From a virus (taxonomy: Duplodnaviria > Heunggongvirae > Uroviricota > Caudoviricetes), in the IMG/VR virus record IMGVR_UViG_2563366989_000001: 37,433 bases of DNA. One strand, given 5' to 3'. A program made the translations under genes and the position numbers. The first letter of the stretch is position 1, and each line of letters starts with the position of its first letter. The notes beneath the pieces are model-generated. The model worked only from the letters and a program-made list of their open reading frames with translations. It was not told the DNA's origin and searched no databases. Of the stretch, positions 24,035 to 35,837 are shown piece after piece.

Positions 24035-25411
24035 TCATACGTCAGCCCCTTGTGCATATCGTCTGCCACGCGAAGCAGGTGCATTTGATGCTGTGCAAAT
24101 CTGTCTGGCTTCATCCTGGTCACATGCAACAAAGTGTCCGTTGCAGAACCGCTGGTAAACCGTACCAAGCGAGCCAAAACGGTTTTTCGTCACAATGATT
24201 TCAGCAAATGGCGCGGCGCTACTGTTCTCGTCATATACCGCTTCCCGATAGAGCATGATGATTGAGTCTGCGTCCTGCTCAATGCTTCCTGAATCACGCA
24301 AATCTGCGTTTGTCGGGCGTTTGTTTGGTCGCTTCTCAACATCGCGCGAAAGCTGACTTAGGGAGATAACAGGCGTTTTCAAGTCTTTCGCCATCGCCTT
24401 CAGGCTTCCTGAGATGTGAGCAATTGCGAGGTCGTTGCGGTCTGCTTTCGGCTTCTCAATCAGGCCAAGATAATCCGCCATGATGAGTGAGAGGTTTGGA
24501 TTTTCCTGTTTGTGCCGTTCTGCGATTGAGCGTATTTCTTCGACCGATAACCGCGAGGCATCGACTACCCATACATCCAAATCTGCAAGCTGACTCATGC
24601 CGTTAGCAACACGTGCCCAGCCCTCGTCATCCATTGATGCAGGATTTCGCAGTACGCTAACCGACATCCTCCCGGCGTTGGCAATGCTTCGCTCTGCAAT
24701 CTGCAATGCGCTCATTTCCATTGAGAAAATCAATACTCCGCGCCGGACGTCAGAACCAGGAATAACGCGGCTTGCAACGCCTTCGGCAATCTTCAGCGCC
24801 AGTTCGGTTTTCCCCATACCAGGACGAGCAGCGATTATCACCAGGTCTTCCGCGTTCATCCCTCCGGTGATGGCATCAAGTTCTTCGATTCCGGTCTTCA
24901 GGGTATCTGACTCTTCTCCGTTCCTCAGACGCCTGTCAAGCGTGTCAGTGTAGTCAGTAATGATTTCCCCTAACCGTACAGGTTTAACCTCGTCACGGGG
25001 CTTTCTGATGGCTGAAAGACGCTTTACAAGTTCATCCATCGCCTGACTCGATGCGTCGATGGTTCCGCTCTGAATTGGTTCACGCATTTCATCCATGATT
25101 TCCAGCACCAGACGGCGGTGATAGTTATCCGCGACCATTCCGGCATATCCCTTCAGGTTTGCGGCACTCGGGCAGTTTTTGCTGGTCATCAGGATTGACG
25201 TGAAATGCTCCTCTCCGCACGCCTCGGCAACCATCAGCGCATCGATTAGGTTTCTGTTTCTCGCCTGCTTGCGGATAACCTCGAAGGCTTTCCGGTAGAG
25301 CGGAATTGAAAACGCTTCCGGCTCCAGCGTTGCCAGAACGTCGCTGGCGGTTGGTGTTAATCCACCAATCAGCAGGCCACCGATAACGCTCGCTTCGATA
25401 TCCTGTCTCAT
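24035..25411 (-). CDS. Replicative DNA helicase (DnaB family)
   Basis: 458 aa; Walker [13 protein letters not shown]; overlaps the initiator gene by 4 nt. Confidence 0.9.
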
Positions 25412-26229
25412 GTAATCCCCCTGTCTGCAAACTTCCCTTCCCGAACTCCCGTTAACGAGTCTTCCCTCAGCAGGTAATCAAAATCAGCCGTCCAGCCCGT
25501 GTCGTTGTCTCCGAAGTAAAACGGCTTGGCCTGATGCACAAACGCCCTGACATACGCTCTGAAACCGTCCACGTTTGGCGTTTTCAGTTGCGGGATGATT
25601 TTCTTCAGGCGGCGTTTGCGTTTCTCGTTGACCGCAACAGCGTGTGGCAGTCTGTCACCGACTTCGGTGTTGTAGGCGTTCAGGAAGGATTCGTAGTCGA
25701 TTCGTTCTGCCTTGCGACGTTCAGGTTTAACCTGCCCATCGCCACCCCCGTTAGGGGGTAAGGGGGTATTTGTATTTATTGTCTTTTGTATATTGTCTTT
25801 TGTGTTTAGCTGACTTGGCTTATACCCATTAGCCGACTTGGCTAATGTTTTATTAGCTGTTTTAGCTAATGTTAAGCTGTCCTGGCTAATCCACTGAGAA
25901 ACCACCTTGTTCACTCCGATTTTCACGCCATCAGCAATGAGGAATTTACGCTCGATAAGCTGGCGCTTGGCAGCGCAAACATGAGTGTGATGAATACCTG
26001 TCATGGCTGCTATCTGCGTGTTTGTGAGTCGATCCATCGGCTTATTGAATCCGTATGTCTTGCGCATGATAGCGAGCATCACCTTCAACTGCCGGACGGT
26101 TAAATCAGCCATCAGCAGACTGTCGGTAATCTCGTTAGCAACGCGCATGAAACCATCTTCGGTATCTGCCACGCGATGCTCCACGACCTCAAGTTGAGGC
26201 CTGTAATCAGCTAACTTAACGACGCCCAT
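25408..26229 (-). CDS. Replication initiator (lambda O-like N-terminal domain)
   Basis: [37 protein letters not shown] resembles lambda O N-terminus; iterons lie inside the gene. Confidence 0.85.
25768..25889. repeat. Origin of replication: four phased iterons plus an AT-rich tract, inside the initiator gene
   Basis: ttagctgacttggct / ttagccgacttggct / ttagctgttttagct / taagctgtcctggct at roughly 21-23 bp spacing (25806-25889); AT-rich 25768-25805 with duplicated attgtcttttgt. Confidence 0.7.
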
Positions 26230-26377
26230 GTTTCACTCCTGCTTTGGCTAGTCTGTAAACACCAACAAGGCGCTCTGCGAACGCCCTGTTATTTGCTGCG
26301 GCTACCACTAATCCCTCAGGTGAATCAGGGTGTCGAATCTCTTCTTTTTCCTGGTATTTCTTACGACGTTTTGTCAT
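26216..26377 (-). CDS. Possible small basic protein (53 aa) between cII and the initiator gene
   Basis: ATG 26377 with AGGAG 5-6 nt upstream; MTKRRKKYQEKEE...; end overlaps the initiator start; below the ORF-track length cut-off. Confidence 0.3.
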   Translation of the reverse strand: MTKRRKKYQEKEEIRHPDSPEGLVVAAANNRAFAERLVGVYRLAKAGVKHGRR

Positions 26378-26409
26378 AATTACTCCTGTGGATTGATCCA
26401 GTAATTCCC

Positions 26410-26706
26410 TCAGAATTGCATATCAATTTGCTTAAAATCCTCGGTGGCGGCCGGGGATTTTTTCTTTGTGATTTCATCAAGCGCATACTTAAAAGCCCTG
26501 CTAATCGGACTGATGTCTGATGCCATTCCGAAAGCACACAACACCGAAGCAATAAATCTCCAGTCCGTTCTGCTTATCTTCGATTCATGACAGCCAATCA
26601 TCTTTGCCAGACCGCGCTGGGTAAGCGTTGACAGGTTGATGAGTAAATCAGTTTCAGCGCGATCAACGTCACGCTGTGATAGTTTGCTGTAACTTGTTCT
26701 TTCCAT
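26410..26706 (-). CDS. cII: cII-like lysogeny activator
   Basis: GCHESKISRTDWRFI...KKKSPAATEDFKQIDMQF parallels lambda CII (HTH and C-terminal KKRPAATE...Q.EF). Confidence 0.75.
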   Translation of the reverse strand: MERTSYSKLSQRDVDRAETDLLINLSTLTQRGLAKMIGCHESKISRTDWRFIASVLCAFGMASDISPISRAFKYALDEITKKKSPAATEDFKQIDMQF

Positions 26707-26847: not shown

Positions 26848-27063
26848 TTAAGCAGCTTTGTGTTCCGGCGGGAACACGTCATCAAGACTGACTTTTGCGC
26901 CTAACTTGTTTAGGCACTCAACAAGAGCACGGCATGTTTTAAGGTCTGGGAAGCGACGACCAGATTCCCAATGTCCGATAGCTCCCTGTGTGCATCCAAC
27001 TGCCTTAGCAAGTGTTGTTTGAGAGATATTCAGTGACTCTCGATATTTTCGTAGGTTGCTCAT
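26848..27063 (-). CDS. cro: Cro-like repressor
   Basis: 71 aa from ATG 27063 (GGAGG 4 nt upstream); HTH ISQTTLAKAVGCTQGAIGHWESGRR; the longer listed ORF is an upstream extension. Confidence 0.8.
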   Translation of the reverse strand: MSNLRKYRESLNISQTTLAKAVGCTQGAIGHWESGRRFPDLKTCRALVECLNKLGAKVSLDDVFPPEHKAA

Positions 27064-27089
27064 ATGCCCTCCATAGTAATCACAATGCA

Positions 27090-27118
27090 ATAATACGATA
27101 TGTACTTTTAGAATGCAA
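27090..27118 (-). promoter_or_regulatory. pR promoter for cro
   Basis: Minus-strand TTGCAT-17 bp-TATTAT about 27 bp upstream of the cro ATG. Confidence 0.6.
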
Positions 27119-27166
27119 ACAAAAAAATACATCTTGTGCATGGATGATTTTAGTACAGAGCGTAAT
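27092..27166. promoter_or_regulatory. Candidate OR operator region (two related 15-mers)
   Basis: aatacgatatgtact (27092-27106, overlapping pR -10) and agtacagagcgtaat (27152-27166) share the AGTACA...CGTA.T pattern with a site at pL. Confidence 0.4.
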
Positions 27167-27175
27167 AATAAGGGT

Positions 27176-27835
27176 ATGAAAATGAAATGGTATGAACTGG
27201 CTAGATCCAGAATGAAAGAGCTCGGCATAACTCAAGAGAAGTTAGCTGAAGAGCTTGGTATGACGCAGGGTGGAATTGGTCACTGGTTGCGCGGATCTCG
27301 TCATCCATCTCTTGACGAGATTGGTGTGGTGTTTAAATACCTTGGTATTGATAACGTCTCATTCAACCACGACGGTACATTTTCACCTGTTGGCGAATAC
27401 TCATCTGCCCCCGTTAAAAAACAATATGAGTACCCTGTTTTTTCTCATGTTCAGGCCGGGATGTTCTCGCCTGAGCTTAGAACCTTTACCAAAGGTGATG
27501 CGGAGAGATGGGTCAGCACAACCAAAAAAGCCAGTGATTGTGCGTTTTGGCTTGAAGTTGAAGGTAATTCCATGACCGCGCCAACAGGATCCAAGCCAAG
27601 CTTTCCTGACGGGATGTTAATTCTCGTTGACCCTGAGCAGGCTGTTGAGCCAGGTGATTTCTGCATAGCCAGACTTGGTGGTGACGAGTTTACCTTCAAG
27701 AAACTGATCAGGGATAGCGGTCAGGTGTTCCTACAACCACTAAACCCGCAATATCCAATGATTCCATGCAATGATAGCTGTTCCGTAGTAGGGAAAGTTA
27801 TCGCCAGCCAGTGGCCTGAAGAGACATTTAGTTAA
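27176..27835 (+). CDS. cI: Immunity repressor cI: distinct N-terminal HTH domain fused to a lambda-cI-type C-terminal dimerisation/autocleavage domain
   Basis: C-terminal ~125 aa ([34 protein letters not shown]...[11 protein letters not shown]) almost identical to lambda cI as recalled; N-terminal HTH differs; start at ATG 27176 or 27182 (ATG 27113 lies in the pR -35). Confidence 0.85.
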
Positions 27836-27857
27836 CAGCCTCACCACTCTAAAACAC

Positions 27858-27887
27858 ACAACAATAACCCGACCTTAGCGTCGGGTT
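27858..27887 (+). terminator. Intrinsic terminator after cI
   Basis: acccgac-cttagc-gtcgggt hairpin followed by ttttcttttt. Confidence 0.7.
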
Positions 27888-27961
27888 TTCTTTTTCCAAA
27901 ATATAAATCAATAAAATACAAAGTGTTATAAAAAACTAAACCATATTTAGAACATTTTGTA

Positions 27962-27990
27962 TTGACTCAGTAAAGTACACATCGTACTAT
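27962..27990 (+). promoter_or_regulatory. pL promoter with overlapping operator-like palindrome
   Basis: TTGACT-17 bp-TACTAT; agtacacatcgtact (27974-27988) overlaps the -10 and resembles the OR 15-mers. Confidence 0.55.
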
Positions 27991-28036
27991 TTAGCCATCA
28001 GCAGGAAGCTGGAAGCCAAACGGAACAGACTGGCAG

Positions 28037-28064
28037 GCTCTTTAAACAACGTCGAACACTCGAC
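28037..28064 (+). promoter_or_regulatory. Candidate nutL (boxA plus adjacent hairpin)
   Basis: GCTCTTTAAACAA (boxA-like) followed by gtcga-acac-tcgac hairpin, in the N leader. Confidence 0.45.
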
Positions 28065-28107
28065 TACGTGGCTGAAAAGCCAGATCACCCAACCACATAA
28101 GCTGTGG

Positions 28108-28155
28108 GATGCAATGCCGAAGCAACTCTCTCAGGAGTAGCTTCGGGATTGCATC
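28108..28155 (+). other. Large leader hairpin upstream of the N-like gene (candidate RNase III/translation-control structure)
   Basis: 16-nt arms gatgcaatgccgaagc / gcttcgggattgcatc (one mismatch), 16-nt loop; ends 15 nt before the N SD. Confidence 0.5.
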
Positions 28156-28180
28156 GCCAGAGTTTATTCGGGAGGAATCC

Positions 28181-28453
28181 ATGTCCAGAAAAACAGAATT
28201 TAAAGGAACCGCAGCTTCTCGCCGTAGAGATCGTCGCGCAAATCTGCAAAGTCAGGAGGCGATCAGCTCCGACAAGCTACACAGGCCAACCCCTTCACGA
28301 GTGGTCTTGCAATGCAAGCGCAAACCAGCAATGAGAGCAGAAGTGATAACTCTGACAACGTTGACCAGAAAATATGAAGGTTCAACTTGTCTTCCGAACG
28401 TAGCTATTTACGCGGCAGGCTACCGGAAATCAAAACAACTGACGGCGAGGTAA
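28181..28453 (+). CDS. N-like transcription antiterminator (P22 gene 24 type)
   Basis: Arg-rich motif ASRRRDRRANLQ near the N-terminus; C-terminus AIYAAGYRKSKQLTAR resembles P22 gp24; ATG 28181 with GGAGG upstream. Confidence 0.75.
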   Translation: MSRKTEFKGTAASRRRDRRANLQSQEAISSDKLHRPTPSRVVLQCKRKPAMRAEVITLTTLTRKYEGSTCLPNVAIYAAGYRKSKQLTAR

Positions 28454-28848: not shown

Positions 28849-29343
28849 TTAATAATTTGTCAGCGGCGGTACATATACAGGCTTAGGGTCTGGCGCTCTA
28901 TACATCCGGTATTCATTCTTACAGCGAGGACATGAATGCACAAAGAACCCATTAGATTTTATAGTAACCGTGCTTGGTTGAAGTATCGATATTTTATGTT
29001 CGCCGAAGCAATGTGCACAAAGGTTATGCTGCTGAATAGAAGGATCGGAATGACTCTTAGGTCTATACACGGCAGAACCACCTTCAGTTGTATGAAGTTC
29101 ATAATTCTCAGCTTGCACAACAAACATCTTGATTTTTCTATTTTCATCTCGAAGCTTCATTGCGATCTCCTTCTCGGCCTGATAAAGGCCAGAGAGCTCC
29201 GCATTAAGCATCTGTAAATCAGTTATTCTTTGGTGTAGATCTCCAATAGCTTTAGCGATAACCGCATCGTCTCTGGTTTCTTTTATTGTCTTCAGCAGAT
29301 CATAAGCCTGTTTCGCGGCAGTTATACCAGATAACACATCCAT
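28849..29343 (-). CDS. Antisense-oriented hypothetical protein: N-terminal coiled coil plus C-terminal Cys4 zinc-ribbon
   Basis: 164-aa ORF, ATG at 29343; CAHC...CPRC motif; opposite strand to the whole pL operon; direct repeats upstream. Confidence 0.6.
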   Translation of the reverse strand: MDVLSGITAAKQAYDLLKTIKETRDDAVIAKAIGDLHQRITDLQMLNAELSGLYQAEKEIAMKLRDENRKIKMFVVQAENYELHTTEGGSAVYRPKSHSDPSIQQHNLCAHCFGEHKISILQPSTVTIKSNGFFVHSCPRCKNEYRMYRAPDPKPVYVPPLTNY

Positions 29344-29482: not shown

Positions 29483-29569
29483 ATGGAAGAAGAATTTGAA
29501 GAGTTCGAAGAGCATCCTCAGGATGTGATGGAACAATACCAGGACTATCCGTATGACTACGACTATTGA
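29483..29569 (+). CDS. Possible very acidic 28-aa peptide
   Basis: ATG 29483 with AGGTG 5 nt upstream; MEEEFEEFEEHPQDVMEQYQDYPYDYDY; too short for the ORF track. Confidence 0.3.
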   Translation: MEEEFEEFEEHPQDVMEQYQDYPYDYDY

Positions 29570-29753
29570 TACAAATCAATGGTGTGGACAATTCAAACGA
29601 TGCAATGGATGCAAGCTGCAATCGGAATGCATGGTTAAGCCTGAAGAAATGTTTCCTGTAATGGAAGATGGGAAATATGTCGATAAATGGGCAATACGAA
29701 CGACGGCAATGATTGCCAGAGAACTTGGTAAACAGAACAACAAAGCTGCCTGA
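29553..29753 (+). CDS. Small Cys-rich protein (kil position), function unknown
   Basis: 66-aa ORF with CGQFKRCNGCKLQSEC; lies upstream of the cIII-like gene. Confidence 0.45.
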   Translation: MTTTIDTNQWCGQFKRCNGCKLQSECMVKPEEMFPVMEDGKYVDKWAIRTTAMIARELGKQNNKAA

Positions 29754-29935: not shown

Positions 29936-30304
29936 ATGTCAAACATCAAAAAATACATCATTGATTACGACTGGAAAGCATCAATAGAAATTGAAATCGA
30001 CCATGACGTAATGACAGAGGAAAAACTTCACCAGATTAATAATTTCTGGTCAGACTCTGAATACCGACTCAATAAACACGGCTCTGTATTAAATGCTGTA
30101 TTAATCATGCTGGCGCAACATGCTCTGCTTGTAGCAATTTCAAGCGACTTAAATGCATATGGTGTTGTGTGTGAGTTCGACTGGAATGATGGAAATGGTC
30201 AGGAAGGATGGCCTCCAATGGATGGTAGCGAAGGAATAAGAATTACCGATATCGATACATCAGGAATATTTGATTCAGATGATATGACTATCAAGGCCGC
30301 CTGA
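29936..30304 (+). CDS. Hypothetical acidic protein
   Basis: 122-aa ORF, ATG 29936 with GAGG upstream. Confidence 0.55.
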   Translation: MSNIKKYIIDYDWKASIEIEIDHDVMTEEKLHQINNFWSDSEYRLNKHGSVLNAVLIMLAQHALLVAISSDLNAYGVVCEFDWNDGNGQEGWPPMDGSEGIRITDIDTSGIFDSDDMTIKAA

Positions 30305-35762: not shown

Positions 35763-35837
35763 CCATGGAATCACACAGCCTCAACCCCAATGAGGCATGT
35801 TAACCCCCCCCCTTTCATTCCAGCACCGGAGAAAACA

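Follow-up and report, generated by a model that had tools for sequence, protein, structure and literature searches.

The stretch of viral DNA analyzed here (IMG/VR record IMGVR_UViG_2563366989_000001, 37,433 nucleotides; hereafter the window) represents a P22-like (Lederbergvirus-type) phage or prophage of Escherichia coli; its early region is lambdoid, and it contains a full P22-like gene set. We conclude with high confidence that its immunity region, which contains the repressor gene cI, cro, and two control regions, is of the known and widespread cI/Cro type of Shiga toxin (Stx) phages, and that it forms an ordinary lambda-style switch between lysis and lysogeny. This confidence extends to the explanation as a whole, including the predicted mechanism and specificity of the switch. 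A preliminary description of positions 27064–27835, a span that covers the right operator region (OR) and cI and leaves Cro and the left operator region (OL) just outside, had ascribed to the region a novel immunity specificity. Sequence relationships, motif enrichment, conservation, and prior annotation indicate otherwise: the same N-terminal domain, Cro, operators, and junction are present in 63 phage records, and the region is in at least 768 of 5426 complete E. coli genomes.

In these 63 records, the cI N-terminal domain is 96–100% identical in amino acid sequence to that of the window, and the same cassette, with annotated cI, cro, and operators, occurs in 101 phage records. The E. coli genomes, counted when the region was matched over at least 80% of its length, make up about one in seven of those available (~14%). 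Nucleotide identity is 100% in two genomes, E. coli UTAK-1 and OkiPb01711. The window is itself probably a prophage: over the 1161 bp of immunity region tested, it agrees with chromosomal loci at 100% identity. In the P22-like phages 683R2, 720R6, Dewey, and Louie, the 1-kb region, spanning cro-OR-cI(-OL), is 98.6–98.9% identical in nucleotide sequence to the window (98.9% for the annotated cI genes of vB_EcoP-683R2 and vB_EcoP-720R6), and in phi458 the region is 97.7% identical. The cI N-terminal domain of all five phages, as well as that of UTAK-1 and OkiPb01711, is 100% identical to the window's. The P22-like phages and phi458 differ from the window by a few point differences and by an OR1–OR2 spacing of 33 bp rather than 34. 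The terminator and OL arrangement of 683R2 is identical to that of the window, whereas phi458 has a 1047-bp open reading frame (ORF) between cI and OL that the window lacks.

A further set of relatives comprises Stx1-converting phage AP005153, Stx2 II (AP005154), Nil2 (AJ413274), 2851, 1717, YYZ-2008, the PA-series Stx2a phages, ev207, and PhiR63_2 (hereafter the Nil2/Stx1 group). AP005153, Stx2 II, Nil2, YYZ-2008, 1717, and the PA series, in which cI and cro are annotated, are 92.7% identical to the window in nucleotide sequence. The group shares with the window the junction with lambda described below, six operators at equivalent positions, and the gene order cII-cro-OR-cI. The AP005153-type N-terminal domain is 96% identical over 73 amino acids, and its three substitutions are all outside the recognition segment. 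The group differs from the window in having an OR1–OR2 spacing of 32 bp instead of 34 bp, in carrying 1–2 kb of cargo ORFs between cI and OL where the window has none, and, for the Stx1 phage, at 35 of 411 nucleotides of the C-terminal-domain DNA. The carrier of the immunity region differs as well, being P22-like in the window and not an Stx phage.

The repressor gene and its two parts are located as follows.

27182–27835, plus strand: cI repressor gene, 217 amino acids, PHROG 4 (transcriptional repressor)
27182–27424, plus strand: non-lambda segment of cI, made up of the HTH_3 domain (~residues 1–62) plus linker (to residue 81)
27425–27832, plus strand: lambda-type C-terminal module of cI, residues 82–217

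Two Pfam domains are recognized in cI, HTH_3 (residues 9–56, E = 8.3e-11) and Peptidase_S24 (PF00717, residues 85–207, E = 8.7e-29). The protein matches lambda cI (NC_001416) by BLASTP with E = 3e-111 and a computed overall identity of 64.6%. Starting at YEYPVF, the remainder of the protein agrees with lambda at 133 of 136 residues (lambda residues 101–236), the three differences in lambda mature numbering being S139C, E217D, and G236S. At the DNA level, positions 27425–27829 are 93.8% identical to lambda over 405 nucleotides, and BLASTN against lambda detected no similarity upstream of 27425. Because the ~94% DNA identity ends abruptly, with nothing detected immediately upstream, position 27425 marks a true mosaic junction. 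It corresponds to about lambda residue 101, a linker position shortly before the Ala-Gly cleavage site, and the crossover is probably within the conserved stretch coding for YEYP(V/L)FS.VQAG, which includes linker and cleavage-site sequence. The near identity of the C-terminal half to lambda cI, as claimed in the preliminary description, is thus confirmed, and alignment to lambda cI does place the junction. In the C-terminal domain, identity to lambda (98%) far exceeds that to the repressor classes next in line (about 80%, about 64%, and below 50%), the opposite of what the preliminary description named as refuting it. Generic S24 conservation was considered as a source of this likeness and rejected, as no other cI C-terminal domain exceeds 83% identity, most of them are less than 65% identical, and the DNA boundary is abrupt.

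The N-terminal part of cI is identical to lambda cI at 20 of 81 positions (about 21–25%). This low identity is in keeping with the earlier view of the helix-turn-helix domain as foreign to lambda, but calling the two unrelated goes too far. The N-terminal domain of lambda cI also matches Pfam HTH_3 (E = 1e-10), and the two domains are therefore distant homologs with different recognition helices.

The features associated with cleavage and cooperativity are retained. The cleavage site A92-G93 (VQA/GMF, 27455–27460) aligns with the identical A111-G112 of lambda, and the predicted catalytic amino acids S130 (27569–27571) and K173 (27698–27700) align with lambda S149 and K192. All of the lambda cleavage, catalysis, and cooperativity or dimerization residues checked are unchanged in the alignment of cI, in agreement with the earlier proposal that RecA-mediated cleavage and cooperativity are kept. 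In a sequence search of solved structures, the C-terminal module matched PDB entries 3bdn, 8gmu, 2ho0, and 1f39.

The second DNA-binding protein of the switch is encoded next to cI on the opposite strand.

26848–27063, minus strand: cro, 71 amino acids, Pfam HTH_3, E = 1.4e-12

Judged by its sequence, Cro is an all-alpha, HTH_3-type paralog of the cI N-terminal domain (35% identity, E = 3e-13). The recognition segment TQGxIGHW is common to the two proteins, with the Cro version being TQGAIGHWESGRR; the match between Cro and repressor noted previously therefore stands. Lambda Cro belongs to PF09048, whereas the window Cro matches HTH_3 only. Cro is also highly conserved, with 70–71 of its 71 residues identical in the relatives compared (70 of 71 for both the Stx1-phage and Nil2 proteins).

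The operators predicted for these proteins are pseudo-palindromic 15-mers, six in number, having the consensus ARTACR-N3-YGTAYT. Allowing at most one mismatch, ARTACRNNNYGTAYT occurs five times in the 37.4 kb of the window versus 0.66 expected, a count reached in none of 100 shuffles, and four of the five matches fall within the OR and OL control regions. Sites with two mismatches complete both triads (OR at 27092, 27126, and 27152; OL at 27915, 27949, and 27974). An unsupervised repeat search recovered the same 15-mer family (repeat families D1, I1, I2, and I5). In positions 27064–28180, there was no match of 12 or more of 17 positions to lambda-type operators; conversely, no window-type operators were found in lambda OR or OL. 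The distinct 15-mers of the preliminary description are in this way upheld. The operators, listed without strand, and the predicted promoters are as follows.

27092–27106: OR1, AATACGATATGTACT, 0 mismatches, between the −35 and −10 of PR, conserved in 6 relatives
27126–27140: OR2, AATACATCTTGTGCA, 2 mismatches, center at about −43 from the putative PRM start
27152–27166: OR3, AGTACAGAGCGTAAT, 1 mismatch, overlapping the putative PRM −10, identical in all relatives
27915–27929: OL3, AATACAAAGTGTTAT, 2 mismatches, conserved in relatives, repeat families D1 and I2
27949–27963: OL2, AGAACATTTTGTATT, 1 mismatch, adjoining the PL −35, half-sites conserved and center variable
27974–27988: OL1, AGTACACATCGTACT, 0 mismatches, between the −35 and −10 of PL
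27090–27119, minus strand: predicted PR, reading into cro, −35 TTGCAT (or TTTGCA), −10 TATTAT, from consensus scan
27962–27990, plus strand: predicted PL, TTGACT, 17-nucleotide spacer, TACTAT, from consensus scan
27140–27168, plus strand: putative PRM, weak −35 ATGGAT (27140–27145), −10 TAATAA (27163–27168), start near 27175–27176

The predicted PR architecture mirrors that of PL, as seen in a 20-nucleotide inverted repeat (I1) that is 90% complementary. Putative OR3 lies near −17 relative to PRM, so that the placement of OR2 and OR3 comes close to that in lambda. The three OR sites coincide with three putative 17-bp operators annotated in GenBank record AP005153 (2003), and the putative PRM, which we read from the sequence by analogy with the geometry of lambda PRM, is at the place where the same record annotates a putative maintenance promoter.

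Across six relatives, the operator half-sites are invariant at 68 of 72 columns, versus 79 of 127 columns in flanking intergenic DNA. The central triplets vary more (13 of 18 columns invariant). For example, OR2 has invariant half-sites and either TCT or CAT at its center, and the conserved OL1 varies in its central triplet alone (CAT, AAT, or TAT). Variable centers combined with invariant half-sites form the pattern that would be expected of real operators. The spacings between operators likewise include fixed and variable ones. The OR2–OR3 (26 bp) and OL2–OL1 (25 bp) distances are fixed among the window and its relatives, while the OR1–OR2 center spacing is 34 bp in the window, 33 bp in 683R2 and phi458, and 32 bp in the Stx1 phage, Nil2, and ev207. 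The OL3–OL2 spacing is similarly variable, at 34 or 33 bp.

The start of cI is most likely the ATG at 27182, which has a Shine-Dalgarno sequence (AAGGG) 7 nucleotides upstream, with the ATG at 27176 being a possible alternative, leaderless start. Both of these in-frame ATGs are kept in all relatives, and GenBank records annotate three different cI starts. A PRM transcript beginning near 27175–27176 would be leaderless, like the lambda cI mRNA, and the Shine-Dalgarno sequence of the second ATG could serve transcripts from PRE.

Several points weigh against a lambda-style switch of a known type. OR2 and OL3 are each two mismatches from the consensus. The consensus promoter scan did not call PRM, as is expected of a promoter that depends on an activator. 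The six relatives amount to about three lineages, and the Fisher test comparing half-site with flanking columns (p = 2e-7) accordingly overstates their independence. The OR1–OR2 spacing of 34 bp (24 bp in lambda) means that lambda-like cooperativity between these two sites is not guaranteed. As for the type itself, the Clade I cI of Stx phages has been described as the closest relative of lambda cI, with 61% identity, and VT2-Sakai is the reference for Eru3, a replication type linked to Clade I cI (PMC8951638). The window repressor type appears to be Clade I, an equation made through that description (61%, as compared to the 64.6% computed here). Lastly, comparative and annotation mentions of this repressor type were found in the searchable literature, and no binding, footprinting, cleavage, or immunity experiment on it; the "hair-trigger" paper (PMC5977221) contained nothing pertinent.

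We propose a mechanism in which DNA binding, promoter activity, cleavage, cooperativity, and immunity phenotype are predictions. cI dimers would bind the ARTACR-N3-YGTAYT operators through the HTH_3 domain. Bound at OR1 and OR2 and at OL1 and OL2, they would repress PR and PL, as OR1 and OL1 lie between the −35 and −10 elements, and would thereby turn off lytic transcription. A dimer at OR2, near −43 of PRM, would be placed to activate transcription of cI, and one at OR3, over PRM, would provide negative autoregulation. The lambda-type C-terminal module is expected to allow dimerization and cooperativity, both pairwise and long-range, and to use the S130/K173 dyad for RecA*-stimulated self-cleavage at A92-G93. 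Since the module would supply this cleavage, the prophage is predicted to be inducible by the SOS response. Spontaneous release of phi458, whose cI N-terminal domain is identical to the window's, occurs in the strain that carries it, and nalidixic acid is listed as inducing that strain (PMC9701743). These indirect observations fit an SOS-cleavable repressor. Cro, with the same recognition-helix motif as cI, would bind the same operators and turn off PRM during lytic growth.

In terms of specificity, the switch is predicted to be heteroimmune to lambda and homoimmune to the Nil2/Stx1-phage group. The first of these is a reasonable prediction given that no lambda-type operators were found in the control regions. 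We consider it unlikely, though worth raising, that heteroimmune repressors, of at least two DNA-binding specificities but sharing a 98%-identical oligomerization module, might form mixed dimers or tetramers in polylysogens. If they did, the mixed dimers would bind neither operator set well, and the thresholds for maintenance and induction of prophages that otherwise behave independently would become coupled and less stable.

We attribute the near identity of the C-terminal module to that of lambda to homologous exchange at the conserved sequence of the linker and cleavage site, an exchange common to the whole immunity group and not specific to this phage. The preliminary description held that the window repressor was built by domain shuffling. 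The repressor is indeed mosaic with respect to lambda, with a sharp junction at 27425, but that the window and not lambda is the recombinant does not follow from the data. To address this, we compared domain identities among seven repressors. By N-terminal domain, the seven form three classes (window, Stx1 phage, and eps34; lambda and P8983; S137 and mEpX1). By C-terminal domain they group otherwise: window, Stx1 phage, and lambda are 97–99% identical, eps34 and S137 are 87% identical to each other and about 80% to the lambda type, and those of mEpX1 and P8983 are at about 62–65%. The N- and C-terminal identity matrices are thus incongruent, and because the domains group differently, reassortment of domains is pervasive in this repressor family. 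Domain-level mosaicism of lambdoid repressors is established knowledge, as a review notes with reference to Fattah et al. 2000 (PMC3202840; see also PMC2629481).

Lambda could just as well be the hybrid, as the nearest outgroup C-terminal domains pair with window-type and third-type N-termini and the P8983 C-terminus is distant. That lambda cI acquired its C-terminal module, or that the module was exchanged repeatedly among immunity groups, is a real possibility, although one that we hold at somewhat less than even weight. The nearest nonidentical relatives of the module are in eps34 (79–81%) and S137 (82–83%), and in eps34 it is attached to an N-terminal domain of the window type (50%). P8983, which is closest to lambda in its N-terminal domain (56%), has a C-terminal domain only 65% identical to that of lambda. 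These two pairings also fit vertical descent, however, because N-terminal domains evolve faster, and parsimony is weak because the same C-terminal lineage also carries, in S137, an N-terminal domain of a third class; in addition, only seven proteins are compared. With respect to repeated exchange, the C-terminal DNA differs at 28 of 411 nucleotides between window and lambda, at 29 between Stx1 phage and lambda, and at 35 between window and Stx1 phage, making these roughly equidistant lineages, while window and Stx1 phage are only about 4% apart in the cII-cro-OR-N-terminal DNA. More than one exchange of the module is suggested by this greater divergence of C-terminal DNA within the immunity group than from lambda. 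These comparisons suggest that the C-terminal module is a shared part exchanged repeatedly between immunity groups. The predicted function of the window switch would be unchanged if lambda were the recombinant or the module had been repeatedly exchanged.

The other explanations fare considerably worse. It is very improbable that the region has decayed, within a cryptic prophage, to a remnant without switch function. Beyond the window probably being a prophage, nothing specific points in this direction, and the genes cI, cro, cII, N, and O are intact, as are operators, promoters, and terminator, within a full P22-like gene set. Moreover, plaque-forming phages carry the region at 97.7–98.9% identity (PMC9701743). 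Still less credible is an immunity specificity newly created by recent domain shuffling in the window phage. A sharp mosaic junction with lambda cI does exist, but a cassette with the identical junction, N-terminal domain, Cro, and operators is found in Stx1 phage AP005153, Nil2, ev207, PhiR63_2, phi458, 683R2, and hundreds of genomes, and its operators were already annotated in 2003 (AP005153); nor is the exchange recent, because the C-terminal DNA differs from lambda at the 28 nucleotides given above. Least probable of all is that purifying selection on a common ancestor, instead of recombination, accounts for the C-terminal likeness, for although S24 domains are conserved functional modules, nucleotide identity leaps from undetectable to ~94% at the single point 27425, synonymous sites are conserved (only three window-lambda differences alter amino acids), other cI C-terminal domains of the same function are only 35–80% identical, and the domain matrices are incongruent.

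A common lambdoid immunity type of the Stx phages has in effect been rediscovered from raw sequence, along with the established exchange of repressor domains as separate modules, and in this sense little is new. The window cI nonetheless makes a clean worked example of modular repressor exchange. Many Stx phages and ~14% of complete E. coli genomes carry the type, yet no biochemical characterization was found in the searchable literature. Operator affinities, the effect of the 32–34 bp OR1–OR2 spacing on cooperativity, and possible heterodimer cross-talk with lambda-type repressors are therefore reasonable if modest experimental questions.

The surrounding early region is ordered O, cII, cro, a 118-bp control region, cI, a terminator, a second control region, and N, in an orientation opposite to that of the lambda map.

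25408–26229, minus strand: O
26410–26706, minus strand: cII, 98 amino acids, Pfam Phage_CII, E = 6e-32
26684–26697, plus strand: PRE-like cII box, TTGCTGTAACTTGT, within the 5' end of cII
27866–27895, plus strand: intrinsic terminator after cI, hairpin (27866–27887) plus T run, from terminator scan
28037–28064, plus strand: nutL-like site, boxA GCTCTTTAA (28037–28045) and boxB hairpin (28051–28064)
28181–28453, plus strand: N antiterminator gene, 90 amino acids, Pfam N_peptide, E = 8e-32

The cII box is at the position expected from the annotation of lambda, eps34, and mEpX1. Its assignment follows from this position, because the cII-box pattern is not above chance genome-wide (4 matches versus 5.6 expected). 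The nutL-like site is putative and was read from the sequence by analogy with lambda, its hairpin also being detected in the terminator and promoter scan. An oop-like terminator (26434–26461, plus strand) is antisense to the 3' end of cII, in a segment (26370–26471) that is 79% identical to lambda. Between cII and O is a 53-amino acid ORF (26216–26377, minus strand), which matches the gene annotated as ORF53 or as hypothetical in Nil2 and 683R2.

The slot between the cI stop and OL3 (27836–27914) contains the terminator only, with no rexAB or other cargo. The terminator segment (27858–27893) is an 89% match to lambda record positions 35799–35834 and is homologous to the terminator after rexB. 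Elsewhere, the same slot holds lambda rexAB, the phi458 ORF mentioned above, two ORFs in ev207 and PhiR63_2, ORF22 in Nil2, gp44 and gp45 in eps34, and a DNA methylase plus a restriction endonuclease after cI in P8983. It looks like a classic variable hotspot for accessory genes ("morons") expressed from the prophage.

In the early-left operon, a Ral antirestriction homolog (29553–29753, plus strand; PF11058, E = 2e-48) and a DUF2528 protein (29936–30304, plus strand) are encoded. A 164-amino acid ORF (28849–29343, minus strand) lies inside the PL operon on the opposite strand. It matches PHROG 1244 (unknown function), has no Pfam match, and combines a coiled-coil-like N-terminal half with a C-terminal CxxC...CxxC motif; it may be an independently expressed accessory gene, or moron. 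PADLOC and Pfam scans of the neighboring small ORFs yielded nothing bearing on the immunity region.

Among known systems, lambda has the same layout, with triple operators at OR and OL, divergent PRM and PR, OR2 near −42/−43 of PRM, a homologous terminator after the cI operon, and a corresponding arrangement of cII, nut, and N. The lambda immunity type itself was rejected on the N-terminal domain (21–25% identity), the operators (none of the lambda type), and the Cro family (HTH_3, not PF09048); in imm-lambda phages mEp234, HK542, and SfI, by comparison, the cI DNA-binding domain is 98–100% identical to lambda. The window N-terminal domain is 20 amino acids shorter than that of lambda and lacks the N-terminal arm. 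Lambda operators are 17-mers of the TATCACCGC type (TATCACCGCCAGTGGTA in the imm-lambda test), as opposed to the 15-mers of the window. They are spaced at 24 and 23 bp, so that the window geometry differs despite identical cooperativity residues. The OR–OL distance is ~0.9 kb in the window and ~2.4 kb in lambda, which has rexAB where the window does not.

Phage 434 offers a functional parallel. Its Cro and the N-terminal domain of its repressor, which lacks an N-terminal arm, are paralogous all-alpha helix-turn-helix domains that have near-identical recognition helices and bind the same short pseudo-palindromic operators. The sequence search of solved structures with the window repressor gave no match to 434.

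The repressor of Salmonella phage epsilon34 (eps34; gp46) is a full-length homolog, with a C-terminal domain 79–81% identical to that of the window. Related repressors are those of SPN9CC, g341c, and ST64T/phage L c2, and the N-terminal domains of eps34, SPN9CC, and ST64T are about 50–55% identical to the window's. Consistent with this, the eps34 repressor has been reported to be ~80% identical to lambda in its C-terminal part and ~50% identical to L, VT2-Sa, and Nil2 in its N-terminal part (PMC2629481). The putative eps34 operator published in the same study, WTACRAWWTGTAT, shares a TACR...YGTA core with the window consensus (PMC2629481). Eps34 Cro is of the HTH_3 type like the window's, yet is identical to it at only 29 positions (ungapped). 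Two operators are annotated in each eps34 control region, and the repressor is followed downstream by two cargo genes, gp44 and gp45. With an N-terminal identity of ~50%, the specificity of eps34 is predicted to differ from that of the window.

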